The notes beneath the pieces are model-generated. The model ran no database searches and was not told the origin of the DNA. It saw nothing but the letters and a program-made list of their open reading frames with translations. The position numbers and the translations under genes were made by a program. A stretch of 32,000 bases of DNA from Fibrobacter succinogenes subsp. succinogenes S85 (GTDB taxonomy: Bacteria; Fibrobacterota; Fibrobacteria; Fibrobacterales; Fibrobacteraceae): the NCBI RefSeq assembly GCF_000146505.1, contig NC_017448.1:510001-542000 (forward strand), read 5' to 3'. Positions 2,954 to 32,000 of the stretch are shown here, one piece after another. The first letter of the stretch is position 1. The number at the start of each line of letters is the position of its first letter.

Positions 2954-3027
<74 letters not shown>

Positions 3028-3177: not shown

Positions 3178-6100
3178 TTATTTCTTTTTCTTGTTGTTCG
3201 CGCTGTTGCTGCGGACGTCCTTCGGCTTGAACTGGACACTGATTTCCACGTTCGTCACCTTGGAACCGAGTCCAGACGGGTCAAACACCTTGTACGTAAA
3301 TTCGTCGATTCCAGAGAAGCCCTTGTTCGGGGTGTATTCGAAGGAACCGTTCTTTTCGTTCAAGACGATTCGACCATTGCGTGGCTTCATCACCGTCTTC
3401 ACGGATTCGAGCTTGTCGCCATCCGGATCCTTAGCGGCTGACATGAGGCCTGTTGCAGCCGGGACCTTGAGCGTTTCTCCTTCGCGAGTCTGGTAAGAGA
3501 GCGGCTTCGTTTCCGGAGCGTTGTTCACGGCAATCACCGTAAATGTAGCCGTCTTGTGAGCGGTAGCGCCTTCCGGGTCCGTAACTGTGAACGTGATGCG
3601 TTCCGGCTTGCCCTTCCAGTGAGAATACGGCTGAGCCACAATCACAGTCTTCTTTGACTTGTCATAAGTCACCTGCAACTGCTTCTGACCCGTGAATTTC
3701 CACTTGAGGTCTTCGAAGTTGTGGTCCTTATCGCGAGCATACTGGTCAAGCTTAATCGTTGCAATCACACCTTCATTCTGATTTTCCCTGATGGTATAGT
3801 CAGGAATATCGCGCATGACCGGAGCCGCATTCACATGCTTCACGATAAACTTCACAACAGACTTGTCCGTGCCACCTGCCGGGTCCGTAGCCGTAAAGAT
3901 AATCGTTTCATCACCGAACCAGTTATCCCTTCTCGGCTTGATTTCAGCAACGTGGTTAGCATTGATTCTCACGTCAATGTTCTTGGCGCCAGAAACACTC
4001 CATCTGATCTCATTCTTCTTGTGGTCCGGATCGCTAACAAATTCATCCAGGTTGACGGACTTGAAAGCCTTGCCTTCAAGCGTCGTCTGTCCCGGGATTT
4101 CCTTCACAATCGGCGGGTCATTCACGGACTTCACAGTAAAGCGGACTTCAACAGAAGCCTTTTCCTTGCTCGGGTCAAACACGTTGATCGTCACTGTTTC
4201 GGTACCGTTCCAGTACTTGTTCGGGATTTCAACAGTGAGGATACCCTTTTCGCTGATGTTGTACTTCAGCTCATGCTTGGAGAAAGTCGGAGCCGGAGCT
4301 TCTTCCTGCTTCTTGGCCTTCTTTTTCTTCTTGTCCTTCTTGTTGTGCTTTGCCTTTACAGGAGCAGCAGAAGCAAACGGATTTTCACCATCAATAGACC
4401 ACTTGAGTTCATCGACGCTGTTATCCGGGTCGGTCACGAACTTCGTCAAGTCAATTGCCGGGAAGGTCTTCTTTTCTTCAATGACCTGCGGCGGAATCGG
4501 CTTAAACTTCGGAGGATCGTTCACCGGAATCACTTCGAACGTAGCCTTTGCAGACTGCTTATCGCCAGCCGGATCCATCACCGTGAACGTAAGCGTTTCC
4601 TTGCCAAACCAGTTCGGATTCGGGGTCGTCACCGTTGCACGGCCGTTCTTGATGTCCACAACAAGCTGGTTGTTGCCAGCAACAGACCACTTGAGTTCAT
4701 TCGGCTTGTTATCCGGGTCGTGAACGATTCTTGCGAGGTCCACCGGAGTAAACCTTTCCTTTTCCTTGATTTTCTGATTGCCAATTTCCTTGGTAATCAC
4801 AGGCGGATCGTTCACCGGAGTCACTTCGAATTCAATCTGCTGAGAAGCCCTTGCACCTTCCGGATCCGTCACATCGAGACGAATCTTTTCAGAACCGTTC
4901 CAGTACTTGTCCGGGGTCGTCACAACGAGCTGCTTCTTGGCATTGATTGTAGTCTTGAGAGCGCGAGTCGGAGCAACTTCGAACTTCAGAGAGCTCGTCG
5001 GATGATCCGGGTCAGAGACAAACTTCAACAAATCAATCGGTTCAAAATGTTCTTTTTCCTTGATGGTCTGGGCGAGAATCGGCCTAATGACCGGAGCATC
5101 ATTCACAGATTCCACGACAAAGTTGACCGTCTTGGAATCAGTTGCGCCATCCGGGTCCTTCACGGTGAACACGACATTGCGTTCACCATGCCAATACTGG
5201 TCGGCAATATTGATGTGAGCGAGGCCGCCCTTATAAATCACAACACTGAACGGATCCTTGACGACTTCTTCTTCCTCGTCATCATCATCCTTCTTGCCCT
5301 TCTTACCCTTCTTGCTCTTCTTAGGCTGTTCGGATTCTGGCTTCTTAACCTTGACCGACCAAGAGAGCTGTTCCATGGTGTTATCCGGGTCGCGGACAAA
5401 CTTGCTCAAGTCGATATCCTTGAACGTACCCTTTTCACGAATCTTCTGCGGCGGAATATCCCTCAAGACCGGAGGATCGTTCACAGAGACAATTTCGAAC
5501 GTAATCGTCTGAGAAGTCTTTGCACCATCCGGGTCGCTCACTTCAAGCATCATGAGTTCAGGAGCGCACCAGAAATCCTTATTCGGTGCAGTCACCGTAA
5601 GCACACGGCTCGGAGAGATTTCGGCCTTGAGCTGCTTAGCACCCGTGATTCTCCAGCGGAGTTCGTTAGGCTTGTTATCCGGGTCCTTCACGAATTCGTC
5701 AAGCTTAATCTGCTTGAAGGTTTCCTTTTCCTTGATCTTCTGGTCCGGAATTCTCTTCACAAACGTCGGAGGATCGTTCACGCGGGTCACTTCAAAGACC
5801 ATCTTGTGGCGAGCATAAGCACCTTCCGGGTCCGTCACGGAGAACGTGAGGGATTCCTTGCCGCTCCACTGCTTATCCGGAACAGAGACGATTACAGTAT
5901 TATCCTTACGGATATCAACCTTGAGGTCACGATTGCCAGAGACTTCCCACTTCAAGGAAGATGCCGGATGATCCGGGTCTTCGGCGAGAGTCGAGAGGTC
6001 GATAGTCTTGAAACGGCCACCTTCAAGAATCGTTTCGCCCGTCGGAGCGCTAGAGGAAATCACCGGAGCATCGTTCACGGAGCGAACTTCAAAGCGAGCA

Positions 6101-9100
6101 GTCTTGCTTGCAGAAGCGCCTTCCGGGTCCGTTGCTGTAAACGTGATGTTAGCAGCACCGTGCCAATACTTGTTCGGAATGTTAACCGTAGCAACACCAG
6201 TCGGATCGACCGTCACACGAAGGCCAGAAGCGGAGGTTTCTTCACCGTCATCCTTGCCCTTCTTCTTCGAAGAACCCTGGCTAATCGGATTTACCTTAAA
6301 CGTCCACTTGAGATCGCTAATCTTGTGGTCCGGGTCCTTGACGAAGTCAGCAAGCTTGATCGGCTGGAACTGTTTCTTTTCGTCAATGGATTGGTCGCGG
6401 AGGTCACGGACAAATTCCGGAGCGTCGTTCACAGAAAGCACCGTAAAGGTCACTTCCTTGCTATCCGAAGCGCCATCCGGGTCGGTCACCGTAAAGCGAA
6501 TCTTTTCAGAACCATTCCAGCTTGCGTTCGGCGGAGTCACCGTCACCTTGTGCGTTGCATCCATAGCGACACGGAGTTCCTTGTTGCCTTCCATCTTCCA
6601 TTTGAGGCGGTTCTTCGGATGATCAAGGTCTTCAACAAAGTTGTCAAGTTCAATCGGCTTGAACGATTCCTTTTCCTTGACAGTCTGGCTTGCAATTTCC
6701 TTCATGACCGGCGGGTCATTCACAGAAACAACCGTAAACGTTGCCGTCGTACGGGCCTTGGCTCCAGACGGGTCGGTCACAGTGAAGGTCACCTTTTCGG
6801 AACCGTTCCACATCTTGTTCGGAGTCTTCACGGTCACAATGCCCGTCTTGGACATATCGACCTTGAGATCCCTATTGCCCGTAAAGTCAATCTTCAAGCT
6901 TTCAAAACGGTCATCCGGGTCAGACACGAGTTCAGACACGTTGAACGGAGTGAATTCGCCCTTTTCCTGAATAGTCTGGTCAGCCACCTGCTTGATTTCC
7001 GGGAGATCATTCACAGATTCCACCGTGAAGAGAGCCGTAGAAGAAGCCTTAGCGCCTTCCGGGTCCGTTACGGTGAACGTAATTTCTTCGGCACCGTTCC
7101 AGTACTTGTTCGGAATAACAATCGTTGCAACCTTGTTCGCATCGATATTGACCTTGAGTTCGGATTCTCTCTTCTTGGAACCGGCAGCAGGCTTGCTAGA
7201 GACAGAGAACGAGAGATCAGAGAGCTTGTTATCCAAGTCCTTCACCATGTCAGCGAGCTTAATCGGCTGGAACTGGCCCTTTTCACGAATCGTCTGCGGC
7301 ATGACCTGCTTTACAAACATCGGAACGTCGTTCACGGATTCCACGGTGAAATTCGCCGTGCGTTCATCGCAAGCGTTATCCGGGTCGCAAACCTTGAACG
7401 TCAGAGTTTCGGCACCGTGCCACTGCGGAGACGGCGGAGTGATGCGCACGACATGAGCACCATCCATGGCAACCTTGAGTTCCTTGTTGCCCGTAATCGT
7501 CCACTTGAGGCGATTCTTGGCATGGTCAAGGTCTTCAACAAAGTTGTCAAGTTCAATCGGCTGGAATTCGCCCTTTTCCTTGATGGTCTGTTCGCGGATA
7601 TCCTTCATGACCGGCGGGTCGTTGATAGCCTTGACCGTGAACTTTGCAGATGTAGATGCACGAGCGCCTTCCGGGTCCGTTGCGGTAAACATGAGCGTTT
7701 CCGTACCGTTCCACTGGTCGTGCGGAATCTTCACGGAGACTTCGTGAGACCTGTTATCAATATTGACCTTGAGGTCCTTATTGCCAGTGACTTCGATCTT
7801 GAGCTTCGAGAAATCGTGGTCGGCATCGCTCAAGTAGTCATCCATGATAAACGAAGTAAATTCGTTCTTTTCTTCAATCACCTGGTCCGGAATCTTCTTG
7901 AATACCGGCGGGTCATTCACAGAACGCACGTTAAGAGCGACTTCCTGCTTAGCAGAACCGCCTTCCGGGTCCGTCACTGTAAATGTTGCAATCGTGTTGC
8001 CAAACCAGCTCGGGTCCGGGATTTCAACCGTAGCGACATGCTGGTCGTCAATATTGACGTTGAGCGTACCAAGTTCCGGCATCTGGCCCTGGTGCTTGAC
8101 TTCAACATCCCAGGAGAGTTCGGAATTCTTGTGGTCTTCGTCCTTGACGAAGTCATCAAGCTTGATCTTGGTGAACTGCTGCTTTTCGTTGATGTTCTGG
8201 TTCGGAATCGGGCGAATGAACTTCGGCAAGTCGTTCACGGAGTTGACCGTAAACACAGCTTCGCAATCAGCAGAAGCGCCTTCCGGGTCCGTAGCCTTGA
8301 ACTTGATGGATTCAGAGCCGTTCCACATCTTGTTCGGGATGCGGATTGTAGCCACACCGCCAGAAACAGAGACCTTCAAATCCTTGGCGCCCGCAACAGC
8401 CCACTTGAGCATTTCGATGCGGTGGTCCGGATCCTTCACATATTGGCCAAGCTGGATCGGTGCGAATTCCTGCTTTTCGTCAATCGTCTGGTCCGGAATG
8501 TTTTGAACAAATTCAGGAGGATCGTTGATGGAGTTGACCTTGAAGAGCACATCCTGCTTTACGGATGCACCGGCAGCGTCCGTCGCGGTAAACGTCACGC
8601 GTTCCTGGCCATTCCAGAACTCGTTCGGGATTGTCACAATGGCAGAACCGTAATTGTCAATTTCAATCTTGAGGTCCTTGTTGCCCGTGACCGTCCACTT
8701 GAGCTTCATCGGATCGTCATCCGGGTCCGTGACATAGTCCGCAAGAGAAATCATATCAAACTGATTTTTCTCATCGATGACCTGGTCCGGAATCTTCTTC
8801 GTAAATGTCGGAGGATCATTCACAGGAGTGACCGTGAAAGCTGCGGTCTTGTTATCGCTACCGTAATCCGGGTCATTTGCGATAAACTTGATTCTTGCAG
8901 CACCATACCAGTGCTTGTCGGGAACAACAATCGTTGCAACGCGGTTAGCGTCAATCGTTACAGACAAATCACCATCAGCCTGAGGACCGCCTGCCGGGAC
9001 AACTTCGGTATCCCATGTAATCAGGTTCTTCTTGTGGTCCGGGTCATTTACAAAGTCATCCAAGCGAATCTTGGTGAACTGCTGACCTTCCGTAATGACC

Positions 9101-9579
9101 TGACTCGGTATCTGAGATACAACCGGCGGATTGTTCACGGATTCAACCGAGAAGTTCACCGTTTCAGATGCACTGGCACCTTTAGAGTCCGTTGCCGTAA
9201 AGGTCAAGTCTTCGGAACCATTCCAAAGGGCATCCGGAGTTGCAATTTCAACCGTATGGTCCGGAGCGATATTCACCTTGAGGGCCTTGTTGCCGCTCAC
9301 CTTCCAACGGATCTGCGAGGGCTGGTCCGTGTCGTCGGTGACAAAGTTATCAAGTTTGAACTTCGTGAAAGTCCCACCTTCCAAAATAGATTCGCCAGGA
9401 ATTCCACCCACCTGTGGCGGTTCGTTCGCCGGAGCCGGTTCAGGAGCAGGTTCACTTACAGGGGCCGGAGCAGCTTGTGGAGCCGGGGCCGCAGATGCAG
9501 GATTTTGCGCAAACGATGATGTTGCAATAACACTAGCAGATGCTATCAAGGTCGCCATGGACCTCTTCAGTTTTTTCAT
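3178..9579 (-). CDS. Giant secreted cadherin-like repeat protein (19 repeats of about 100 aa plus a distinct C-terminal Ig/cadherin-like domain)
   Basis: The ORF is open to 9606, but ATG 9579 (MKKLKRSMATLIASASVIATSSFAQ, signal-peptide-like) has GGAG 7 nt upstream. Each repeat ends in VNDPP/VNDAP and carries a DPDH/DPDN motif, a W.V.GNK.LKV core and TDPEGA. These are cadherin-type Ca-binding signatures (DxNDxP). Confidence 0.9.
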   Translation of the reverse strand: MKKLKRSMATLIASASVIATSSFAQNPASAAPAPQAAPAPVSEPAPEPAPANEPPQVGGIPGESILEGGTFTKFKLDNFVTDDTDQPSQIRWKVSGNKALKVNIAPDHTVEIATPDALWNGSEDLTFTATDSKGASASETVNFSVESVNNPPVVSQIPSQVITEGQQFTKIRLDDFVNDPDHKKNLITWDTEVVPAGGPQADGDLSVTIDANRVATIVVPDKHWYGAARIKFIANDPDYGSDNKTAAFTVTPVNDPPTFTKKIPDQVIDEKNQFDMISLADYVTDPDDDPMKLKWTVTGNKDLKIEIDNYGSAIVTIPNEFWNGQERVTFTATDAAGASVKQDVLFKVNSINDPPEFVQNIPDQTIDEKQEFAPIQLGQYVKDPDHRIEMLKWAVAGAKDLKVSVSGGVATIRIPNKMWNGSESIKFKATDPEGASADCEAVFTVNSVNDLPKFIRPIPNQNINEKQQFTKIKLDDFVKDEDHKNSELSWDVEVKHQGQMPELGTLNVNIDDQHVATVEIPDPSWFGNTIATFTVTDPEGGSAKQEVALNVRSVNDPPVFKKIPDQVIEEKNEFTSFIMDDYLSDADHDFSKLKIEVTGNKDLKVNIDNRSHEVSVKIPHDQWNGTETLMFTATDPEGARASTSAKFTVKAINDPPVMKDIREQTIKEKGEFQPIELDNFVEDLDHAKNRLKWTITGNKELKVAMDGAHVVRITPPSPQWHGAETLTFKVCDPDNACDERTANFTVESVNDVPMFVKQVMPQTIREKGQFQPIKLADMVKDLDNKLSDLSFSVSSKPAAGSKKRESELKVNIDANKVATIVIPNKYWNGAEEITFTVTDPEGAKASSTALFTVESVNDLPEIKQVADQTIQEKGEFTPFNVSELVSDPDDRFESLKIDFTGNRDLKVDMSKTGIVTVKTPNKMWNGSEKVTFTVTDPSGAKARTTATFTVVSVNDPPVMKEIASQTVKEKESFKPIELDNFVEDLDHPKNRLKWKMEGNKELRVAMDATHKVTVTPPNASWNGSEKIRFTVTDPDGASDSKEVTFTVLSVNDAPEFVRDLRDQSIDEKKQFQPIKLADFVKDPDHKISDLKWTFKVNPISQGSSKKKGKDDGEETSASGLRVTVDPTGVATVNIPNKYWHGAANITFTATDPEGASASKTARFEVRSVNDAPVISSSAPTGETILEGGRFKTIDLSTLAEDPDHPASSLKWEVSGNRDLKVDIRKDNTVIVSVPDKQWSGKESLTFSVTDPEGAYARHKMVFEVTRVNDPPTFVKRIPDQKIKEKETFKQIKLDEFVKDPDNKPNELRWRITGAKQLKAEISPSRVLTVTAPNKDFWCAPELMMLEVSDPDGAKTSQTITFEIVSVNDPPVLRDIPPQKIREKGTFKDIDLSKFVRDPDNTMEQLSWSVKVKKPESEQPKKSKKGKKGKKDDDDEEEEVVKDPFSVVIYKGGLAHINIADQYWHGERNVVFTVKDPDGATDSKTVNFVVESVNDAPVIRPILAQTIKEKEHFEPIDLLKFVSDPDHPTSSLKFEVAPTRALKTTINAKKQLVVTTPDKYWNGSEKIRLDVTDPEGARASQQIEFEVTPVNDPPVITKEIGNQKIKEKERFTPVDLARIVHDPDNKPNELKWSVAGNNQLVVDIKNGRATVTTPNPNWFGKETLTFTVMDPAGDKQSAKATFEVIPVNDPPKFKPIPPQVIEEKKTFPAIDLTKFVTDPDNSVDELKWSIDGENPFASAAPVKAKHNKKDKKKKKAKKQEEAPAPTFSKHELKYNISEKGILTVEIPNKYWNGTETVTINVFDPSKEKASVEVRFTVKSVNDPPIVKEIPGQTTLEGKAFKSVNLDEFVSDPDHKKNEIRWSVSGAKNIDVRINANHVAEIKPRRDNWFGDETIIFTATDPAGGTDKSVVKFIVKHVNAAPVMRDIPDYTIRENQNEGVIATIKLDQYARDKDHNFEDLKWKFTGQKQLQVTYDKSKKTVIVAQPYSHWKGKPERITFTVTDPEGATAHKTATFTVIAVNNAPETKPLSYQTREGETLKVPAATGLMSAAKDPDGDKLESVKTVMKPRNGRIVLNEKNGSFEYTPNKGFSGIDEFTYKVFDPSGLGSKVTNVEISVQFKPKDVRSNSANNKKKK

Positions 9580-9992
9580 TTTCGATCTCCGATACCATAC
9601 ATGCAATCAAAATTTCATAGTGAAATTTATCACACGTCCTTAAAATCGTCTTTAAATATAACGCTTTTCCGAGAAATCTTTTCATATTTTGAATTGGTTT
9701 TCCATAACAAAAAATGAGCTTTTTGTCTATTTCGTTTCAGAAATTTACGTAACTAATTGAGCATCAACGAGTTACAGAAAGAAGGTATAAAAAGTCCTCC
9801 ACCATCTGTTTTTCGGGTAAAAATCGCATTTTCCACACAAAACTCATAAAAGAGGCTTCAGTTATGTAAATTTTTTGTAAAACAAGGCTTTTTTGGTCAA
9901 TCGTCCCCCTCCCGAGGGCTTCAAAAAGCTGCAAAATTTCACAAAAAAAACTAATTTTGAAATAAACCGATTAAATCTAACCAGGAAACACA

Positions 9993-10403: not shown

Positions 10404-11936
10404 ATGCAAAGAAAGGTCCTAGAAAGCCTTTACAACCAAGGCGGGTTATCGCTTTTCGCCATTTCTGACGAAGAAACCTTACCCACAGAAGCCTTGCATA
10501 AATTCGCACTGGCACTTAACGCCGGTGCGCGTTTTATTGTAATTGACTTTACCGGGAAGCGCCCTTTTGAAGGGAATGCGCCTTTCCAGACCTCGCACCT
10601 TTCACAAAAGCTCCTCTCCGCCGAGGATATTCAAAAGATTACAGCCTCTTCTACAGAAGACGGGTGCATCTCATTTACAGGGACTAAGGCAATCCCCACC
10701 TCGGACATAGAATTCCGCACGCTTTACCACAACCTTAAAAACCTCGAAAAAATAGCCCCGCAAGTCATCGGCATCGTTTCGACCGAACAAGTCGAAAACG
10801 TCGGAAAGCTAGTCGCCATGGCACGACTCCTGATCATGCATGTGACACCCCTTTCCATGAAATCGGCGGCATCATTCATCGAGGACGTGAAAGAAGCGCA
10901 AAAAATCGAAATTTTGTGGCTTTCCAAGGAACGCCCGGCAAGACGAGCCTACCCCAAGGCCCGCAAGGCCATCAGCAGAAACGCAAGCGCCACCAAGGAA
11001 GCGTTCAACCTGGATTTTCAAAAGAACCCGGAAGAACTCGCCAAAGTCATCCAAAAGCTCCATAAAGTTTCAATTCTCGTGAAAAATCCGCTTGACGGAT
11101 TCCCGAGACTCATCCGCAACCTGTTTCCGCTATTGCTCATCGCCGTTATTATCGCGCCATTCCTCTTTGTCACAGACATCGACAGGAGCGATTCCAACCT
11201 CCGAGACCGCATCCAGGAACGAAACCAGCTTTCCGTAGCCCCCTCGTTCGAATACACCTTTGACGGGAACGAAAGCATGCAGCGCATCGCGCGTTACGCT
11301 ATCGGACGATTTGACGCGATCATCACAAACGAAAAGATGATTAAGAACTACGTAGCCAAGACACTTGAAGACAATGGCTACGGCGTGACCGCATGGGAAA
11401 AGGGCTGCCACAACATTCCGCCTAAAGGAACCACAATACGCTTTTCCCGCCCGGACGAAATCAAGCGCCCCGCCTCGGCTGATACAATCGGCGCTGCATG
11501 GAAATTCTGGACATCCGTCATTTCGGACAGCATCGCCTACATCACGGAATTTTATCATGAAACAGCCACCGCTACGCAAAGAAAGCACAACGGCATTGAC
11601 GTCGCCAGCCGCCAGGGAGCACGTATTTTAGCCCCATACGGAGCCAAAGCCTGGACTAGCCGTGATGAACGCGGAGGCGTGATTATTGCACTCGTTCGTA
11701 AGCAAGACGTTATCTTGTTTATGCATTGCGACAAGCTCCTTTATCTGAACGGCCAGGAGGTCATGCCGGGTGACCCGATTGCCACCGTAGGCACCACAGG
11801 ACACACCACTGGACCGCATGCGCATATCGTTACGGGACTCGTCAGCAAGAAGGGAAAAAAGAGGATAGGCAACGTCCGTTACGACGTCATAGACCCCATA
11901 AAGTGGTTTTACAAATTCAAGCCGACCTCCAAATAA
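10404..11936 (+). CDS. M23/LytM-family metallopeptidase with a large N-terminal domain and one central TM segment
   Basis: The C-terminus has HNGIDV (HxxxD) and GPHAHIV (HxH) M23 zinc motifs. TM segment LFPLLLIAVIIAPFLFV lies mid-protein. The N-terminal region of about 230 aa is unassigned. Confidence 0.85.
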   Translation: MQRKVLESLYNQGGLSLFAISDEETLPTEALHKFALALNAGARFIVIDFTGKRPFEGNAPFQTSHLSQKLLSAEDIQKITASSTEDGCISFTGTKAIPTSDIEFRTLYHNLKNLEKIAPQVIGIVSTEQVENVGKLVAMARLLIMHVTPLSMKSAASFIEDVKEAQKIEILWLSKERPARRAYPKARKAISRNASATKEAFNLDFQKNPEELAKVIQKLHKVSILVKNPLDGFPRLIRNLFPLLLIAVIIAPFLFVTDIDRSDSNLRDRIQERNQLSVAPSFEYTFDGNESMQRIARYAIGRFDAIITNEKMIKNYVAKTLEDNGYGVTAWEKGCHNIPPKGTTIRFSRPDEIKRPASADTIGAAWKFWTSVISDSIAYITEFYHETATATQRKHNGIDVASRQGARILAPYGAKAWTSRDERGGVIIALVRKQDVILFMHCDKLLYLNGQEVMPGDPIATVGTTGHTTGPHAHIVTGLVSKKGKKRIGNVRYDVIDPIKWFYKFKPTSK

Positions 11937-27106: not shown

Positions 27107-27250
27107 ACAAAACCTATCCTAATTACCCGATTCGAAATATAGCTAACCTACAAAAAGTATACAATGTTAAAAATTTGCATAGTGATATAACGCACGGGGC
27201 CCCTCCTTATTTTGAGTGTATAAAGTTTTTTTAAGAACGATACATTTTTT

Positions 27251-27281
27251 TCACACACATTCTTGATTAGGAATACATAAT
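27251..27281 (+). promoter_or_regulatory. Module promoter P1 (before the 65-aa ORF)
   Basis: T7 tract, TCACACAC, 17-nt spacer, CATAAT (27276-27281). Confidence 0.45.
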
Positions 27282-27356
27282 CATAGTGCAATTTCAAACG
27301 GAATTGTCGCACAAGGTTGGCGAATCCAGCCTTTTCAAACTCAAAAGGTAATAAAA

Positions 27357-27554
27357 ATGGCAATTGAAGCCCTCGCCGCCATGGCGGCTAAGAAAGCAGT
27401 AGTTGATGTAGCACCCGTAGTAGTAACAGCTGTTGCGACTGCGATAACAAAGGAAATCATCAACCATAGCGACGACATCATCGAAGAAATGGCTTGCGCA
27501 CCCTTCAAGGTCGCAGGTGAAATTCTAGACAGCATTGACCGCTGGTTCTTCTAA
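27357..27554 (+). CDS. Small hypothetical protein (65 aa), Ala/Val-rich N-terminal half and acidic C-terminal half
   Basis: AAAGG RBS. It has its own promoter-like element and its own strong terminator, giving a discrete monocistronic layout. Confidence 0.55.
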   Translation: MAIEALAAMAAKKAVVDVAPVVVTAVATAITKEIINHSDDIIEEMACAPFKVAGEILDSIDRWFF

Positions 27555-27588
27555 AAAAAATACGTAAGAAGTGTTGTGGACGTATTTG

Positions 27589-27625
27589 GCGCACGCCTGA
27601 AAAAAAAGGCGTGCGTGTTTTTTTT
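27589..27625 (+). terminator. Rho-independent terminator after the 65-aa ORF
   Basis: gcgcacgcc / ggcgtgcg(t) stem, A-rich loop, T8 run. Confidence 0.8.
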
Positions 27626-27636
27626 CAAAAAAAATT

Positions 27637-27667
27637 TCGTACAACCCTACTCATTAGAATCCATAAT
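27637..27667 (+). promoter_or_regulatory. Module promoter P2 (before the NYN gene)
   Basis: TTTTTTTTCAAAAAAAA tract, TCGTACAA (27637-27644), 17-nt spacer, CATAAT (27662-27667). Confidence 0.5.
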
Positions 27668-27737
27668 CACTATGTAATTTCGAATGAAATTACCGACTCG
27701 GGCTGACGATTTCAGCCATAAAAAAAAGGAATATACA

Positions 27738-28445
27738 ATGGAAAACAATACAGCAGTTTTCGTAGATGCAGAAAATCTGACATTCTGGGCATACAACAAT
27801 GGTGTACACGACCTCATGAAAAGCCTCCAATCGCAAGGACCAGTCGTCATTCGTAAAGCTTATGGGAAATGGACATCACCTCAACTATCTCCCCTTCAAC
27901 AAGAATTCAACATCAACGGATTTGAGTTGATTCAAACGTACCACCCGATTACAGGCAAAAACTCTGCAGACATCAAGATGGTCGTTGATGCAATGGAAGC
28001 AGCCACCAACCCCTGTTTGCAAACAATTGTACTCGCAACAGGGGACTCTGACTTTTCTCCACTATTTCGCAAACTTCGCGAGATGGGGAAAAAGGTCATT
28101 GGAGTCGGCCCACTATCCAAGCTGAGTGAATGCGTACAAAGTTCCTGCACCCATTACATTTATACAGGAAGTCCCTCCCCCGTCAGCAAGATGGTAGCAT
28201 TATTTCCTGGCGAAGTTCAATCCCATGAAAGAGCCCACGCCTTTGCGACACTCCACAAGATTCTTGAGGCTCAAGACGAACCAATTCTGCTAACAAAGTT
28301 GAAGCCTCTGATGCTCAAAGAGGACAATGAGTTTGACCATGCAAAGCTCGGTTACGAGTCTTTTAAGGACTTCTTATTGGCCTCTGGGGAGGTCCATCTC
28401 AGCCCCATGATTGCAGGGCCGGTATACGCAAGCCTGGCTTCATAG
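27738..28445 (+). CDS. NYN-domain (LabA/DUF88-like, PIN-fold RNase) protein with a C-terminal OST-HTH/LOTUS domain
   Basis: VFVDAENL..., KNSADIKMVVDAME and LATGDSDFSPL are the NYN acidic motifs. The C-terminal KLGYESFKDFL helix bundle is typical of LOTUS. ATG 27738 has AAGGA upstream (track start 27684 rejected). Confidence 0.8.
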   Translation: MENNTAVFVDAENLTFWAYNNGVHDLMKSLQSQGPVVIRKAYGKWTSPQLSPLQQEFNINGFELIQTYHPITGKNSADIKMVVDAMEAATNPCLQTIVLATGDSDFSPLFRKLREMGKKVIGVGPLSKLSECVQSSCTHYIYTGSPSPVSKMVALFPGEVQSHERAHAFATLHKILEAQDEPILLTKLKPLMLKEDNEFDHAKLGYESFKDFLLASGEVHLSPMIAGPVYASLAS

Positions 28446-28464
28446 CTTTTTTTCAAAAAAAAAC

Positions 28465-28493
28465 TTGCTAAAATGGCCACACAAATGTATATT
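28465..28493 (+). promoter_or_regulatory. Module promoter P3 (before the long leader and sigma gene)
   Basis: TTTTTTTCAAAAAAAAA tract, TTGCTA (28465-28470), 17-nt spacer, TATATT (28488-28493). Confidence 0.45.
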
Positions 28494-28496
28494 ATG

Positions 28497-28847
28497 GTAG
28501 TCCCCCTTTTTTGGGGATTTTCCTATTGAACATACCGGTCCATCGGACCGTCCCTTTACATCGGTGGTGTTCCATTGGTGTATTGTGGGGGTATTCAGAT
28601 CGAGTATGCCCTTAGGAGTTAGTTTCCGCAATATCTTTTTTTGATGTCGCCCTCTAGCTCTCGCCTAGGGGGCTTTGCCTTGTTATGCAACAAAACTGAC
28701 AGGTTTTTGGGGGGTCAACCTAAGAAACCTCGTATTGATCAATTCTGTTAAGTGCGGCACTAAAACTGCCGCACCTGCATCACATCAGGCGAACGCCTGT
28801 TGCGTTGGGACATAGTGTCTACAGACATGGTCAATTACGAGGTGCAT
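28497..28847 (+). promoter_or_regulatory. Structured non-coding segment of about 350 nt (long 5' leader of the sigma gene, or an independent ncRNA)
   Basis: No credible ORF on either strand. Several strong hairpins: cggtcc/ggaccg (28536-28550), gccctctag/ctagggggc (28649-28673), gtgcggca/tgccgcac (28752-28774), caggc/gcctg (28786-28799). An internal T7 run is at 28636-28642. Confidence 0.45.
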
Positions 28848-29519
28848 ATGACACTCAAGACCCCAATCGACTACAAGCAAAGAGAAACCGAAACAGCCAT
28901 ATTAACCAACTTTTTTCAAAGATATCCAACAGAAGTCCTTGCCACTTTAGCAGCCTGGTACCGTCCCGTTCTCAAACAATGGGCTTCAAAATTTCGCAGT
29001 GAATTCTACAGGCCTGATATTCCGTTAAGAGACTACGAAGCGGTTGCTATCAGTAGCCTTGCAGATGCCGCAAAGAATTTTGACAGTACTGCCAACACAC
29101 GCTTTTCAACATATCTATACGCATACGCCAGAAACGAATGTCAAAGGCTTGCCTATAACACAAGCAACAATTTTAGGGTATTCAAGCCTTGCAAAAAAAA
29201 GAATCGCGAAGCCACCGACGCTATTCCCTTTGAAAAACTTACTGTTCAAGATTTCAACACATACAACGACATTACCTTCTATCACAGAAGCCAGCTATTG
29301 GAAAGTCAAAGAAGAATTGAACAATTTTACAACATGCTTAGACACATGAGCAACAGCACTTCTGCTGTAGCGAAAAAGCAAGCGACACGAGTTCAGGAGC
29401 TTGCACACCATGTTCTTATGGGAGGTACAAAAAAGAGCTTTTGCGATGCCTCAGGAACTAATAGGGGAACCCTTGATGAGGCCTTGATGGCCATACGTGC
29501 AAAATTACTAAAAGAATAA
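28848..29519 (+). CDS. Divergent sigma-70-family RNA polymerase sigma factor
   Basis: Region 2-like AISSLADAAKNFDSTANTRFSTYLYAYARNE (FD...RFSTY pattern). C-terminal HTH-like segment SGTNRGTLDEALMAIRAKL. ATG 28848 has GAGGTG upstream (the TTG 28800 and ATG 28827 alternatives lack an RBS). Confidence 0.7.
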   Translation: MTLKTPIDYKQRETETAILTNFFQRYPTEVLATLAAWYRPVLKQWASKFRSEFYRPDIPLRDYEAVAISSLADAAKNFDSTANTRFSTYLYAYARNECQRLAYNTSNNFRVFKPCKKKNREATDAIPFEKLTVQDFNTYNDITFYHRSQLLESQRRIEQFYNMLRHMSNSTSAVAKKQATRVQELAHHVLMGGTKKSFCDASGTNRGTLDEALMAIRAKLLKE

Positions 29520-29570
29520 TTTATTCAAAAAAGTCTACATAAACCAACTTATCCAACCAAGGGATTTCCC

Positions 29571-31199
29571 ATGAACGAGCTGGCCAATATTCAAAAAAAT
29601 ACAATGTCATCTATCCTTGGCGCAGGCGAAAAAGTCTGCAAGTCGGCGGTGTTAGATGGTATACCGGAAAGATTTGCCGAGTTTCACCGCCAGGGATACA
29701 TTCATATCCATGACTTAGAGTTTTACGACAAGACCTACAATTGCATCGGGGTATCCGTGAGCGACCTTGTCAAGGATACGGACATTCAGGTTTCTACAGT
29801 GTTACGCAGATTGTATCGTGGCATCGTGAGCCTGACAAACAATCAGTCCGGTGGAATAGGCTTTCTAGATTTCGATGGTGATATGGCCGCATACCGTATG
29901 GACGAAAGTGACGAGATCCTAACGGAGGCCTTTCGCAACTTCTTTGAAGACTTGAATATCTACTCACGAAAAGGTTGCGAGAAGCCCTACACCACGTTAA
30001 ACATCGGTTGTAGAACGTCAACGAAAGCCCGCAGGATCGCTAAAGCTGTTTTAAGCGCAGCCTTGGAAGGGAATAGTGAAGGCAAGCCGTTCATTTTCCC
30101 CAACATCGTCTTCAAGTACTCACGAGCTATCAATGGTACAGAATCCTCCCCCAACTATGACATTTTTCAGATGGCCTTGAAGGGGACTGCGAGCAGAATG
30201 ATTCCAACATATTTCAACTGCGATGCGCCTTTCAACAGGAATGCGAATCCGAACAAAATTGGAATTATGGGTTGCCGAACTCGCGTTGTCGCTGACATAC
30301 ATGGTAATACCACAGGTTTAAATAGGGGGAATATCGCCTGTGTCACGACAAATCTAGTACGGCTAGCAATTGACTCAAATCATGACTTTCAGGTATTTCT
30401 CAAAAAAATCGGTACGCTTTTTGAGGAATGCAAGGAACTGCTACTTCATCGTTTTGCAACGTTATGCAAAGGAACCTCCCCCATTTTCGCTATTGAGAAG
30501 GGCCTATACCTAGATTCGGAAAAAGGACGTGAGGTGGCGCTTATGCATGGGACGCTTTCCATTGGCTTTATCGGTCTGTGGGACGCTCTTTCGGAACTGC
30601 TTGACACAGACTTTTCTGATGTAGACAATCTTCGTATGCATCATGGAAAAGCCCTAGCAGTACTTCAGGTGATGCGGCAAAAAGTGGATTCGTTTATAGA
30701 GCAGAGCCATATGAACTTTTCGCTGTTGGCCAGTGCAGCGGAGGCAACGACCGGCATCTTTGCAGATCGTGATTTCAAGGAATACGGCATTCAATGCAAG
30801 TCTGCGGCGAAGGGTTTCTACACAAATTCCTTCCACATTCCCGTTGACACGTCAATCCGACTTTTCGAAAAAATCCAACTAGAGGCTCCTTTCCACAAAT
30901 TATGTAATGGAGGCTGCATTAGCTATGTGGAACTAGACGAACAGCCCTGCTACAATGTCGGAGCAATACAGAAGGTCGTGGAATTCGCCATGAAAAACAA
31001 CTGTAACTACTTCGGCATTAATTTCCCGCTAGACCAGTGCAACGCATGCGGTCATTTCGGAAGGATCGGCGATACGTGTAGTTCTTGCGGTTCCTCAGAC
31101 ATTTTGCGTTTGCGAAGGGTTTCCGGCTACCTTTCGGAAAAACGAGCATTTACGAAAGGGAAAAAGCGGGAACTGAACCTACGAAAAGCCTCTTTTTAG
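29571..31199 (+). CDS. nrdD: Anaerobic (class III) ribonucleoside-triphosphate reductase, short form without ATP-cone
   Basis: GYIHIHDLEFY, NQSGG and MGCRT finger-loop Cys. C-terminal Zn ribbon CNACG...CSSCG followed by the glycyl-radical motif RRVSGYL. Confidence 0.85.
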   Translation: MNELANIQKNTMSSILGAGEKVCKSAVLDGIPERFAEFHRQGYIHIHDLEFYDKTYNCIGVSVSDLVKDTDIQVSTVLRRLYRGIVSLTNNQSGGIGFLDFDGDMAAYRMDESDEILTEAFRNFFEDLNIYSRKGCEKPYTTLNIGCRTSTKARRIAKAVLSAALEGNSEGKPFIFPNIVFKYSRAINGTESSPNYDIFQMALKGTASRMIPTYFNCDAPFNRNANPNKIGIMGCRTRVVADIHGNTTGLNRGNIACVTTNLVRLAIDSNHDFQVFLKKIGTLFEECKELLLHRFATLCKGTSPIFAIEKGLYLDSEKGREVALMHGTLSIGFIGLWDALSELLDTDFSDVDNLRMHHGKALAVLQVMRQKVDSFIEQSHMNFSLLASAAEATTGIFADRDFKEYGIQCKSAAKGFYTNSFHIPVDTSIRLFEKIQLEAPFHKLCNGGCISYVELDEQPCYNVGAIQKVVEFAMKNNCNYFGINFPLDQCNACGHFGRIGDTCSSCGSSDILRLRRVSGYLSEKRAFTKGKKRELNLRKASF

Positions 31200-31223
31200 A
31201 GTTCTTTCATTTTTTTCAAAAAA

Positions 31224-31254
31224 TCGTACAAAAGCTTGGAAAATGCCCCATAAT
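31224..31254 (+). promoter_or_regulatory. Module promoter P4 (before the last ORF)
   Basis: TTTTTTTCAAAAAA tract, TCGTACAA (31224-31231), 17-nt spacer, CATAAT (31249-31254). The architecture is identical to P2. Confidence 0.5.
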
Positions 31255-31297
31255 ACGGATAGAAAATCAACCGACCATTTGGTCAAAGGATTCCTTG

Positions 31298-31900
31298 ATG
31301 AGACCGAAAGAGTTTATTGACATGTTCCCTTACGGATACACCCGCCTACGCAACTTGAACGGCAGTGCAGCCCTAAGACTTGAAACAAAGTGTACAAACG
31401 CTTACGTATATGTAAAAAAAATACACCGCAGAATGCCGGAAATCAACCAGGATATCGTAGATGACATTCAGTTAGAATGCGACAATGGAGTCATCATAGA
31501 TTGGTTCAACGACAACGCTTGCCGCTATTTCATCATAATGAGAAAGCATGACGAACTGCTCGCTTACAAGATTGTGCTGAACGCATTCTTTCAAAAAGAG
31601 ACCTTTGAAATAATAGGCTATTTCTTTGAGAATGAACACGAGAACCATCGCAAGAGAGTATACAACGAGCGCTATCTGAAAAATGTTTCACCAGATGCCT
31701 TGATAACGGAAACAGACTTTACGAATGAGCGATACGACATCATCTTTCCCGATGATGCATTAACCCACTGCAGGAGACTAGGCAATACCATTGCCATGAG
31801 CTCCATCTGCTCAACTGAGTCATGCAGTCAAAACCACAGTGATTTAAACATCCACAACAACGAATCCTTGGAGGATAACAGTGAAAGCGACATTGAGTAA
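31298..31900 (+). CDS. Hypothetical protein (200 aa) with an acidic Ser/Asn-rich tail
   Basis: ATG 31298 has AAAGGA 7 nt upstream. The track ORF extension back to 31085 overlaps nrdD and crosses the promoter. No CxxxCxxC motif, so it is not an NrdG activase. Confidence 0.6.
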   Translation: MRPKEFIDMFPYGYTRLRNLNGSAALRLETKCTNAYVYVKKIHRRMPEINQDIVDDIQLECDNGVIIDWFNDNACRYFIIMRKHDELLAYKIVLNAFFQKETFEIIGYFFENEHENHRKRVYNERYLKNVSPDALITETDFTNERYDIIFPDDALTHCRRLGNTIAMSSICSTESCSQNHSDLNIHNNESLEDNSESDIE

Positions 31901-32000
31901 AACTGCCCAAAGCATTGTTCCCGATCGGAACCTCCCCGTGTCCTTGGTAGCCAAGCCCGGACACCTCCTGCATACGGAAAATGGTCAATCAATCGTATTG

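Follow-up and report, generated by a model that had tools for sequence, protein, structure and literature searches.

The window analyzed here covers 32,000 nucleotides (nt) of the chromosome of Fibrobacter succinogenes subsp. succinogenes S85 (NC_017448.1, positions 510,001 to 542,000), and its right end, from about position 27107 onwards, forms the left two-thirds of a gene cassette that is accessory and movable. We read the DNA to the right of the window from the S85 chromosome record CP001792.1, in which the window lies at ~63449 to 95448. The complete cassette spans roughly 7.7 kb, from window position 27245 to window-equivalent position 34953, with ~3 kb lying past the window end. Its plus-strand genes encode a 65-amino-acid (aa) protein, an NYN RNase fused to an OST-HTH/LOTUS domain, a divergent sigma-70-family protein preceded by a long structured leader RNA, a class III ribonucleotide reductase (NrdD), a 200-aa protein and, running out of the window, a Ser/Thr kinase, a VWA protein and a PP2C phosphatase, which together form a TerY-P triad. 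A preliminary description made from the letters of the window had called the 65-aa protein, the NYN-LOTUS RNase, the sigma-like protein, the cone-less NrdD and a protein without a family, and Pfam and NCBIfam searches confirmed all of these calls. It had also held that the cassette was cut off by the right end of the window and matched no known operon or defense system. The cassette does run on, and the core kinase/VWA/PP2C triad, which had been out of view, appears once the sequence is extended rightwards.

By following sigma relatives and NrdD homologues, we gathered further lineages that carry the cassette, and the order (sigma1)-65aa-NYN-[sigma70-type promoter and leader RNA]-sigma-(Tmk/NrdD, optional)-200aa-kinase-VWA-PP2C is conserved among them. 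There are five such lineages in four genomic contexts, in agreement with the earlier view of an accessory, relocatable block. In S85, 65aa-NYN-RNA-sigma-NrdD-200aa-kinase-VWA-PP2C stands among glycosyltransferase and secreted-protein genes. The metagenome-assembled genome (MAG) RGIG6669, hereafter the MAG, and locus L021 carry sigma1-64aa-NYN-leader-sigma2-Tmk-like-NrdD-200aa-kinase-VWA-PP2C beside rarA, and L020 has the same gene order on a contig that ends close to the cassette. L022 and L023 have sigma1-64aa-NYN-RNA-sigma2-200aa-kinase-VWA-PP2C, without Tmk and NrdD, in a third context. Partial copies in L104 to L107 (NYN-RNA-sigma-small open reading frames [ORFs]-200aa homologue) lie beside STAND/GTPase genes; the NYN-RNA-sigma trio is preserved even here, where sigma is only ~23% identical. 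S85 and the MAG share DNA homology from exactly the promoter of the 65-aa gene (27245) to the PP2C stop codon (window-equivalent 34953); this promoter is likewise where homology to the other cassette lineages has its left limit, and all cassette genes are under purifying selection (dN/dS of 0.03 to 0.19).

The MAG lineage and the L012 lineage, which lacks the cassette, have RarA proteins that are 97.4% identical (L008/L016 3271 to 4560 versus L012 5819 to 7108). Beside these near-identical genes, identity falls to 66% for Tmk and 72% for NrdD, and the other neighbors are entirely different: the cassette in the MAG lineage, and NrdG with a helicase/PIN_4/379-aa/AAA block in L012. The rarA locus is therefore a hypervariable island in which the cassette is variably present, a comparison of the kind that the preliminary description had proposed for related strains. 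The drop in GC content from ~27.1 kb onwards that had also been noted is real but small (0.439 for 27107 to 32000 versus 0.479 for 1 to 27106) and is seen elsewhere in the window; as GC is even lower (0.36 to 0.44) at 15 to 21 kb, composition alone is not diagnostic of the cassette.

The sigma gene (28848 to 29519, plus strand) encodes a 223-aa protein with a sigma2 domain and a possible sigma4-like domain. A word search of 5.8 billion proteins returned a single non-identical relative, and HMMER, run exhaustively against 1.84 billion cluster representatives, returned 11; the orphan sigma factor called previously is thus real and extremely rare. When a profile of the 14-member family was compared with PDB sequences, ~50 solved sigma factors led almost exclusively (FliA, 1.8e-6; SigA, 6e-6). 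Pfam Sigma70_r2, which each paralogue matches weakly, is touched by 10 of the 14 members and Sigma70_r4 by one distant member (5.6e-9), with no direct r4 match in the S85 protein itself, whose region 2 motif reads DYEAV..AAKNFD....FSTYL. Foldseek searches with a low-confidence AlphaFold2 model gave sigma32, sigmaS, WhiG, SigB and SigI as the top matches, with full-length alignments to sigma32 and sigmaS. We conclude that the cassette protein is a real, very divergent member of the sigma-70 family.

The paralogues within this family have a patchwork relationship. The N-terminal 133 aa of the S85 sigma resemble sigma2 of L020 (50%; L020 2098 to 2916), and its C-terminal 117 aa resemble sigma1 of the MAG/L021 lineage (48%; L021 3 to 503). 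L020 and the MAG have sigma2 proteins that differ at the N terminus but are near-identical over the last 90 aa. This pattern hints at domain shuffling among sigma paralogues. Weak matches to the family profile were seen at L026 9550 to 10284, L028 13158 to 13949 and L025 3261 to 4055. A 228-aa protein of L015 was considered as a hidden sigma homologue and rejected, as it showed no similarity and was not recovered by hmmsearch.

Upstream of the sigma start codon lies a conserved structured leader RNA of roughly 350 nt (28498 to 28847, plus strand). Its 5′ domain (~28498 to 28714) holds a nearly invariant core. In its 3′ domain, AAGAAACCUCG forms a long-range helix with CGAGGUGCAU at the Shine-Dalgarno (SD)/start region of the sigma gene; in the full-length alignment, AAUGAACCUUG-type sequence pairs with CAAGGUUCAUU directly before the sigma start codon. 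This SD-sequestering helix covaries (CCUCG/CGAGG in S85 versus CCUUG/CAAGG). Positions 28494 to 28860 of S85 align end to end with L020 and L022, and the leader core was also found in L104 (nhmmer, 1e-6; covariance model R1, 172 bits). The core (alignment columns 115 to 216) is 93 to 99% identical between lineages, even though their synonymous sites are saturated (dS of 0.44 to >1.4 in the neighboring genes). The 5′ domain contains 53 pairs, with 92% of cells paired in four distinct sequences, and double-sided changes occur in 11 of the 53 pairs, versus 3.6 ± 1.4 in column shuffles (0 of 500 reach the observed value) and 1 to 5 with slid partners.

Compared with shuffled sequences, positions 28446 to 28847 fold with a z score of −5.4. 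The minus strand folds nearly as well (−5.25), and folding energy alone therefore does not identify the strand. The long structured RNA of the preliminary description is upheld. None of the 4,227 families in Rfam 15 matched the window at the gathering threshold or at an E value of ≤5, and L016, L020, L022 and L104 gave nothing at an E value of ≤1. We rejected 6S RNA, a known small RNA and a riboswitch as identities for the leader, as there was no Rfam match. Searching 692 kb with R1 yielded no copies beyond the training lineages. In four sequences, the RNA combines the features of a cis-regulatory leader: a conserved, covarying structure, a location between promoter and start codon and a helix over the SD sequence. 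We infer from the predicted structure that the leader would repress sigma translation by holding the ribosome-binding site (RBS).

The cassette contains two promoter classes. The leader RNA/sigma operon has a class 1 promoter of the sigma70 type (28465 to 28493, plus strand; TTGCTA-N17-TATATT), with the orthologues TTGACT-N17-TATATT in the MAG, L020, L021 and L022 and TTGACA-N17-TATATT in L104. Only two near-consensus sigma70 sites occur in 41 kb of S85 sequence, namely, this promoter and that of tRNA-Arg. The class 2 element has an A/T tract and (T)CGTACA, then a spacer of exactly 18 nt, usually with GGAA shortly before the −10 box, and finally CATAAT. It precedes the 65aa, NYN (in S85 and L104), 200aa-kinase and VWA-PP2C units. 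In S85, the class 2 promoters are P1 before the 65-aa gene (27245 to 27281, plus strand; T/A tract, CACACA at 27252 to 27257, N18, CATAAT at 27276 to 27281), P2 before the NYN gene (CGTACA at 27638 to 27643, N18, CATAAT at 27662 to 27667), P5 before the 200-aa gene (A/T tract, CGTACA at 31225 to 31230, N18, CATAAT at 31249 to 31254) and P6 before the VWA gene, to the right of the window. At the P1 position, the MAG, L020, L021 and L022 have CGTACA/CGAACA-N18-CATAAT. The claim that every unit has a promoter of the same architecture therefore holds for the 65aa, NYN and 200aa units and fails for the RNA/sigma unit, with its sigma70-type promoter, and for NrdD, which has no promoter of its own.

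Within 41 kb of S85 sequence, the loose pattern NNNACA-N18-CATAAT has four matches, always on the plus strand and always before cassette units. The MAG, L020, L021 and L022 have three class 2 sites each, at orthologous positions, and the distant L104 to L107 have the variant TG(T/G/A)ACA-N18-CCATAAT. As a control set, we used 865 kb from 80 metagenomic sigma-less TerY-P loci (the best 80 of 283 relatives retrieved), which include four Fibrobacter-like loci that do carry the 200-aa gene. A loosened class 2 pattern matched this set once, in a chance-like manner. Because motif and sigma strictly co-occur, a correlative link, we infer that the cassette sigma reads the class 2 promoters. The earlier proposal that the cassette's own sigma factor reads the cassette promoters thus gains correlative support insofar as a distinctive class co-occurs only with sigma, but the unit of sigma itself uses an ordinary sigma70-type promoter.

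Tracts of the type TTTTTCAAAAAA occur 12 times in the window, versus 1.4 expected. They stand before the 65aa, NYN, RNA/sigma and 200aa units and, in a weak version, before NrdD; one also lies upstream of tRNA-Arg. We therefore rejected the tract as a cassette signature; the discriminating signal is CGTACA-N18-CATAAT. The tRNA-Arg gene (2954 to 3027) has a textbook TTGACA-N17-TATATT promoter within 2844 to 2917, with a TTTTTTCAAAAAAAAA tract ~35 nt upstream of the −35 box, which points to a more general place for the tract in Fibrobacter, as an upstream or terminator element. Our literature search found no papers on Fibrobacter promoters or transcription start sites (TSSs).

Close to the predicted TSS, every class 2 unit carries a characteristic leader hairpin, which compensatory changes have kept intact. 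The 5′ leader of the 65-aa mRNA (27282 to 27356, plus strand) forms two hairpins, AATTTC-AAAC-GGAATT (27290 to 27305) followed by GGTTGGCGAATCCAGCC, and both are retained via compensatory changes in the MAG, L020, L022 and L104. P2 and the NYN leader (27620 to 27691, plus strand), with the hairpin AATTTCGAATGAAATT at 27676 to 27691, are paralogous to P1 and the 65-aa leader: 27276 to 27305 and 27662 to 27691 share CATAATCA..AATTTC-N4-GAAATT, in line with the two paralogous hairpin leaders reported previously. Among the close lineages (the MAG, L020 and L022 being the others), this second, NYN-side copy is present only in S85, and L104 carries the same promoter/leader element directly 5′ of its NYN gene. 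P5 and the leader of the 200-aa gene (31205 to 31297, plus strand) include the hairpin CGACC-ATTT-GGTC followed by AAAGGA as the SD sequence, kept with compensatory changes in six lineages.

Similar hairpins were seen in two other places. A palindrome, AATTTCATAGTGAAATT (9611 to 9627), adjoins the start of a 2142-aa minus-strand ORF (3178 to 9606) and resembles the S85 NYN-leader hairpin, being one of two AATTTC-N3-7-GAAATT matches in the window. In L104, the leader type of the 200-aa gene (hairpin plus AAAGGA) is present three times in tandem between the sigma gene and the 200-aa homologue (10753 to 11215). Each copy precedes a tiny ORF: two encode ~40-aa hydrophobic peptides (MKNILIALDIAMSLIAIYEKL... 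and MKNVLVVLEIAATLITIYEKL...), and one is a 79-aa ORF.

Gene starts were set using public assembly gene calls and orthologues (27738 for NYN, 28848 for sigma and 31298 for the 200-aa gene). The 65-aa gene (27357 to 27554, plus strand) encodes a protein with a hydrophobic/amphipathic N-terminal half. The protein is 61 to 84% identical over four lineages, with a dN/dS of 0.18, and domain searches gave no family match; one may speculate that it acts as an anti-sigma factor or a small effector. The gene is followed by an intrinsic-terminator-like hairpin and T run (27589 to 27626, plus strand), with an equivalent hairpin in the MAG and L022. The 235-aa NYN-LOTUS protein (27738 to 28445, plus strand) combines a PIN-like NYN domain (111.8 bits; cut-off, 24.2) with an OST-HTH/LOTUS domain (27.5 bits; cut-off, 23.8), both of which pass their Pfam thresholds. 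It is 68 to 75% identical in all cassette lineages, and the predicted RNase has acidic motifs of the catalytic type (FVDAEN and ATGDSDF).

The 200-aa protein is encoded at 31298 to 31900 (plus strand), not by the 271-aa ORF from 31085. Its gene overlaps the kinase start by 20 nt and is always upstream of the TerY-P kinase. A profile of the family matched nothing among PDB sequences or in Pfam, and a single-sequence AlphaFold2 model was unusable (predicted local distance difference test [pLDDT] score of 34). The kinase gene starts at 31881 (plus strand), is cut by the window end at 32000 and continues in CP001792.1. In order, the genes beyond the window encode the kinase, the VWA protein, the PP2C phosphatase, a 228-aa protein and a 1048-aa KGGVGR/Sll1717-type ATPase. 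The triad (L001 12311 to 15381) matches Pfam Pkinase, VWA and PP2C_2, and the kinase family has a C-terminal CxxC...CxxC zinc ribbon. PADLOC gave kinase, PP2C and TerY matches, which were weak (0.0024 for TerY), and assigned the 1048-aa ATPase to PDC-M28B/C. In three lineages, a KGGVGR AAA plus Sll1717-type ATPase (1048 to 1216 aa) and a 211- to 339-aa partner accompany the cassette in either orientation (L001 15422 to 19258, window-equivalent 34992 to 38828; L016 15218 to 17187, minus strand; L022 14480 to 18781, minus strand). The same pair accompanies Tmk-NrdG-NrdD in L015 (871 to 5297, minus strand).

NrdD (29571 to 31199, plus strand; 542 aa) matches Pfam NRDD (3e-113) and NCBIfam TIGR02487 (366.1 bits; cut-off, 326.35). 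The ATP-cone, which is optional in the family, was not found in it, the matches beginning at model position ~157 or later; thousands of similar cone-less NrdDs of 541 to 576 aa exist, and cone absence is the norm of the subfamily. Aligned with 8p23 and 1h78, the protein shows an MGCRTRV thiyl-Cys loop, an RVSGYL glycyl radical site and a CNACG...CSSCG Zn Cys4 site, and its dN/dS is 0.10. The gene follows sigma after 51 nt in S85, and in the MAG the genes of this unit overlap; NrdD is probably cotranscribed with sigma. The preliminary description had counted NrdD as a member of the cassette. NrdD is missing from the L022/L023 and L104 cassettes, and L012/L013 and L015 have Tmk-like/NrdG/NrdD genes but no cassette gene; NrdD is therefore a passenger and not part of the core.

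No radical-SAM NrdG gene was present within ±10 kb in S85, the MAG, L020 or L021. The best 120 homologues of the L012 NrdG included no S85 protein; a second NrdG type exists, and this result does not establish that S85 lacks NrdG. A search of the literature for an S85 activase gave no result either. The NrdGs of L012 (11637 to 12209, minus strand; 190 aa) and L015 (7030 to 7509; 159 aa) are only 29% identical, beside NrdDs that are 65% identical, and the 190-aa type has its nearest named relatives in Selenomonadales (Schwartzia and Selenomonas; 58 to 61% identical). A scan of the genome collection for NrdD found four loci, S85 not being among them. Next to nrdD in the cassette-less lineages lies a four-gene block (L012 12209 to 21635, minus strand; L015 9231 to 19142) that encodes an S1 plus Upf1-like helicase (~1460 aa), a PIN_4 protein (~820 aa), a protein of 379 aa and an AAA_2/AAA_5 ATPase (~620 aa). 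This block resembles CoCoNuT-type Type IV restriction systems, but PIN replaces HEPN.

The linkage of these genes, the two promoter classes and the structure of the RNA are shown by the data above. With slightly better than even confidence, we read the cassette as a TerY-P phospho-signaling conflict module, whose parts are the 200-aa protein, the Zn-ribbon kinase, the TerY-like VWA protein and the PP2C phosphatase, joined to a dedicated front end composed of the NYN-LOTUS RNase, the 65-aa protein, the leader RNA and sigma. In such a module, the host housekeeping holoenzyme would transcribe the leader RNA-sigma(-NrdD) operon from the class 1 promoter, a use suggested by its sequence. According to the predicted structure and its covariation, the 3′ domain of the leader would lock the sigma RBS in a long-range helix, leaving sigma untranslated by default. 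A trigger would then open the leader; speculatively, the best candidate is cleavage or remodeling by the adjacent NYN-LOTUS RNase, or binding to the invariant 5′ core. Going by the co-occurrence of motif and sigma, sigma would steer RNA polymerase to the A-tract, CGTACA, N18, CATAAT promoters of the 65aa/NYN, 200aa-kinase and VWA-PP2C units. The output would be the TerY-P switch together with the RNase, probably in conflict with phages or mobile elements, as homology and the defense-island context indicate. NrdD is an ordinary cone-less class III enzyme that was captured into the sigma operon in some lineages, and it would depend on an activase encoded elsewhere. A bolder version, which is possible and which we put forward tentatively, is that the NYN-LOTUS RNase, the leader RNA and the new sigma clade make up an undescribed three-part device that gates TerY-P, i.e., a sigma cascade gated by RNA that would serve inducible immunity and could also carry NrdD/Tmk as metabolic passengers.

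Several observations weigh against this interpretation. The S85 kinase has an in-frame TAG in place of a Trp codon after residue 275 (L001 13136 to 13138; window-equivalent 32706 to 32708), leaving the Zn-ribbon tail on a separate 139-aa ORF, and the orthologues in the MAG, L020 and L022 have 419 to 421 aa; because of this premature stop, the S85 copy of the cassette may be partly decayed or inactive. The S85 sigma scores 22.3 bits with Sigma70_r2, under the curated cut-off of 24, and 19.3 bits with TIGR02937 (cut-off, 42.9), and its family membership therefore rests on profile and fold evidence. The AlphaFold2 model used for the fold comparison has a pLDDT score of 61 (from a two-sequence alignment; ~80 in the C-terminal three-helix unit). 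The RNA covariation comes from only four distinct sequences, and the MAG/L021 leader differs, being non-homologous to that of S85; it also buries the SD sequence in a long helix (z = −7.2). The assignment of promoters to sigma is purely correlative, and the class 2 −35/−10 pair is a few bases from the sigma70 consensus, such that a housekeeping or alternative host sigma could read it. Adjacency is all that ties the NYN RNase to the leader RNA, and an action of the former on the latter is speculative. The defense role, finally, was drawn only from homology and neighborhood, and conflict or defense is probably the function of the cassette.

The class 2 promoters might be read by a host sigma, be it the housekeeping factor at a weak −35 box or a chromosomal alternative, with the cassette sigma serving other targets or acting as a decoy or regulator. 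The motif is ~4 positions from TTGACA-N17-TATAAT, the −35 box in L104/L106 reads TGNACA (a 4/6 match), and a CGTACA-N17-CATAAT site lies upstream of the sigma-less Tmk-NrdG-NrdD operon in L015. Against this, outside the cassette no such site occurs in 27 kb of the window or in the MAG and L022 loci, and the 865 kb of related sigma-less loci have a single one. Moreover, the non-consensus bases (C at −10 position 1, GTACA, N18 and the usual GGAA) recur over 16 sites (the −35 box of P1 reads CACACA), and the sigma genes always have a separate, near-consensus sigma70 promoter. We consider this explanation rather unlikely. We also regard it as unlikely that the RNA at 28.5 to 28.85 kb is a free-standing small RNA that ends at a 3′ hairpin instead of a sigma leader. 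Its 5′ 200 nt are indeed the best-conserved part, hairpin 6 is followed in S85 by UUUUU, hairpin 5 was flagged as terminator-like, and the promoter matches the consensus as strongly as the tRNA promoter does. The U-tract, however, is not conserved in L020, L022 and L104, the alignment runs on as far as the start codon and the SD sequence lies inside the covarying 3′ helix. No second promoter was seen between the RNA and sigma, and the non-homologous MAG version is an analogous SD-sequestering leader.

The preliminary description suggested an origin in a phage or mobile element as plausible. In that case the cassette would be the remnant of a prophage, an integrative and conjugative element or another integrative element, with NrdD, Tmk and sigma as phage-like cargo and sigma as a late-gene factor. 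Phage genomes frequently encode NrdD, Tmk and a sigma factor of their own; here, NrdD, VWA and the kinase match PHROG families, and the cassette moves between genomic contexts. Extending the sequence rightwards, as had been proposed, revealed no NrdG, integrase, att-like repeats or phage genes: within ±10 kb, S85 has no integrase, phage gene or NrdG, no lineage has an integrase, recombinase, structural or replication gene, and att-like flanking repeats were not found. Neither sigma nor the RNA was found in the viral contigs of IMG/VR or in INPHARED, and the closest phage NrdD is 37.6% identical, versus 50 to 52% for those of other bacteria. These results do not bear out such an origin, which we deem very unlikely. 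That chance has placed side by side in S85 a set of housekeeping genes with no relation to one another and with independent regulation can hardly be credited; NrdD alone is a standard metabolic enzyme and the compositional shift is small, but the same linkage and promoter set recur in five lineages and four contexts, and no member of the sigma family is found outside such cassettes. The comparative data already contradict chance adjacency.

The components of the front-ended TerY-P module that we favor are of known kinds, namely, a TerY-P triad, an NYN-LOTUS protein, an NrdD and an alternative sigma factor. What appears to be undescribed is the coupling of TerY-P to a private sigma clade, a defined promoter class and a conserved leader RNA, and our literature search found no paper that mentions both TerY-P and a sigma factor. 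The TerY-P triad was reportedly described by Anantharaman, Iyer and Aravind in 2012. According to PMC10542128, the triad (a kinase with a Zn ribbon, VWA and PP2C) is found alongside Type II/III-A CoCoNuT systems, and a related form acts against phages on its own (Gao et al. 2020, cited in PMC10542128). Like these, the cassette has three adjacent genes with the same domains, a Zn ribbon on the kinase as in the CoCoNuT-associated form, and a locus among defense-like genes. It differs in its order, kinase-VWA-PP2C after a conserved 200-aa protein, in having no CoCoNuT genes, in the split of the triad into two units, each with a cassette-specific promoter, and in the coupling to one or more sigmas, a leader RNA and NYN-LOTUS.

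With group 3/4 sigma factors (for example, FliA/WhiG, SigI and extracytoplasmic function [ECF] sigmas with a co-encoded anti-sigma factor), the cassette protein shares a sigma2 domain, possibly a sigma4-like domain, a small gene set with a common non-housekeeping promoter and a small co-encoded protein beside the sigma gene. Unlike known alternative sigmas, it is extremely divergent, belongs to an 11-cluster family and often has two paralogues per cassette. No recognizable anti-sigma domain is present in the cassette, and control is apparently exerted via the long structured mRNA leader, perhaps together with an anti-sigma factor. The leader resembles SD-sequestering leaders (riboswitches, RNA thermometers and RNase-processed leaders) in its conserved multihelix 5′ domain and covarying SD-occluding helix and differs from them in matching no Rfam family and in being always encoded beside an NYN-LOTUS gene. 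The RNase has the two-domain architecture of bacterial NYN plus OST-HTH/LOTUS proteins (LabA-like; domain relatives of eukaryotic MARF1), and its subfamily is set apart by its link with a sigma gene and one particular RNA; we know of no bacterial member of this architecture with an established function. NrdD fits the cone-less subfamily (~545 to 560 aa) in passing TIGR02487 and in its catalytic motifs and four-Cys Zn site; unlike its L012/L015 relatives, it sits in a sigma operon with no adjacent NrdG.

TerY-P triads are widespread but mechanistically opaque. In the subset described here, a compact control circuit is made up of a private sigma factor whose family has about a dozen known clusters, a defined three-block promoter and a highly conserved structured RNA absent from Rfam, which adds a candidate new class of cis-regulatory RNA and a new sigma clade. 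As S85 is a rumen bacterium that can be cultivated and has been studied genetically, it allows a direct test of how a conflict module is regulated. An essential-type enzyme such as NrdD can ride in a hypervariable island, which bears on core versus accessory gene calls in Fibrobacter. Among the neighbors of related loci, the sigma-less 200aa-TerY-P locus L025 (2188 to 7669) and L104 (175 to 7968) share a pair of MMR_HSR1/IIGP-type GTPases; L025 also encodes Endonuclease_NS_2 and radical-SAM proteins, and L104 also encodes a 1412-aa STAND/TPR ATPase.

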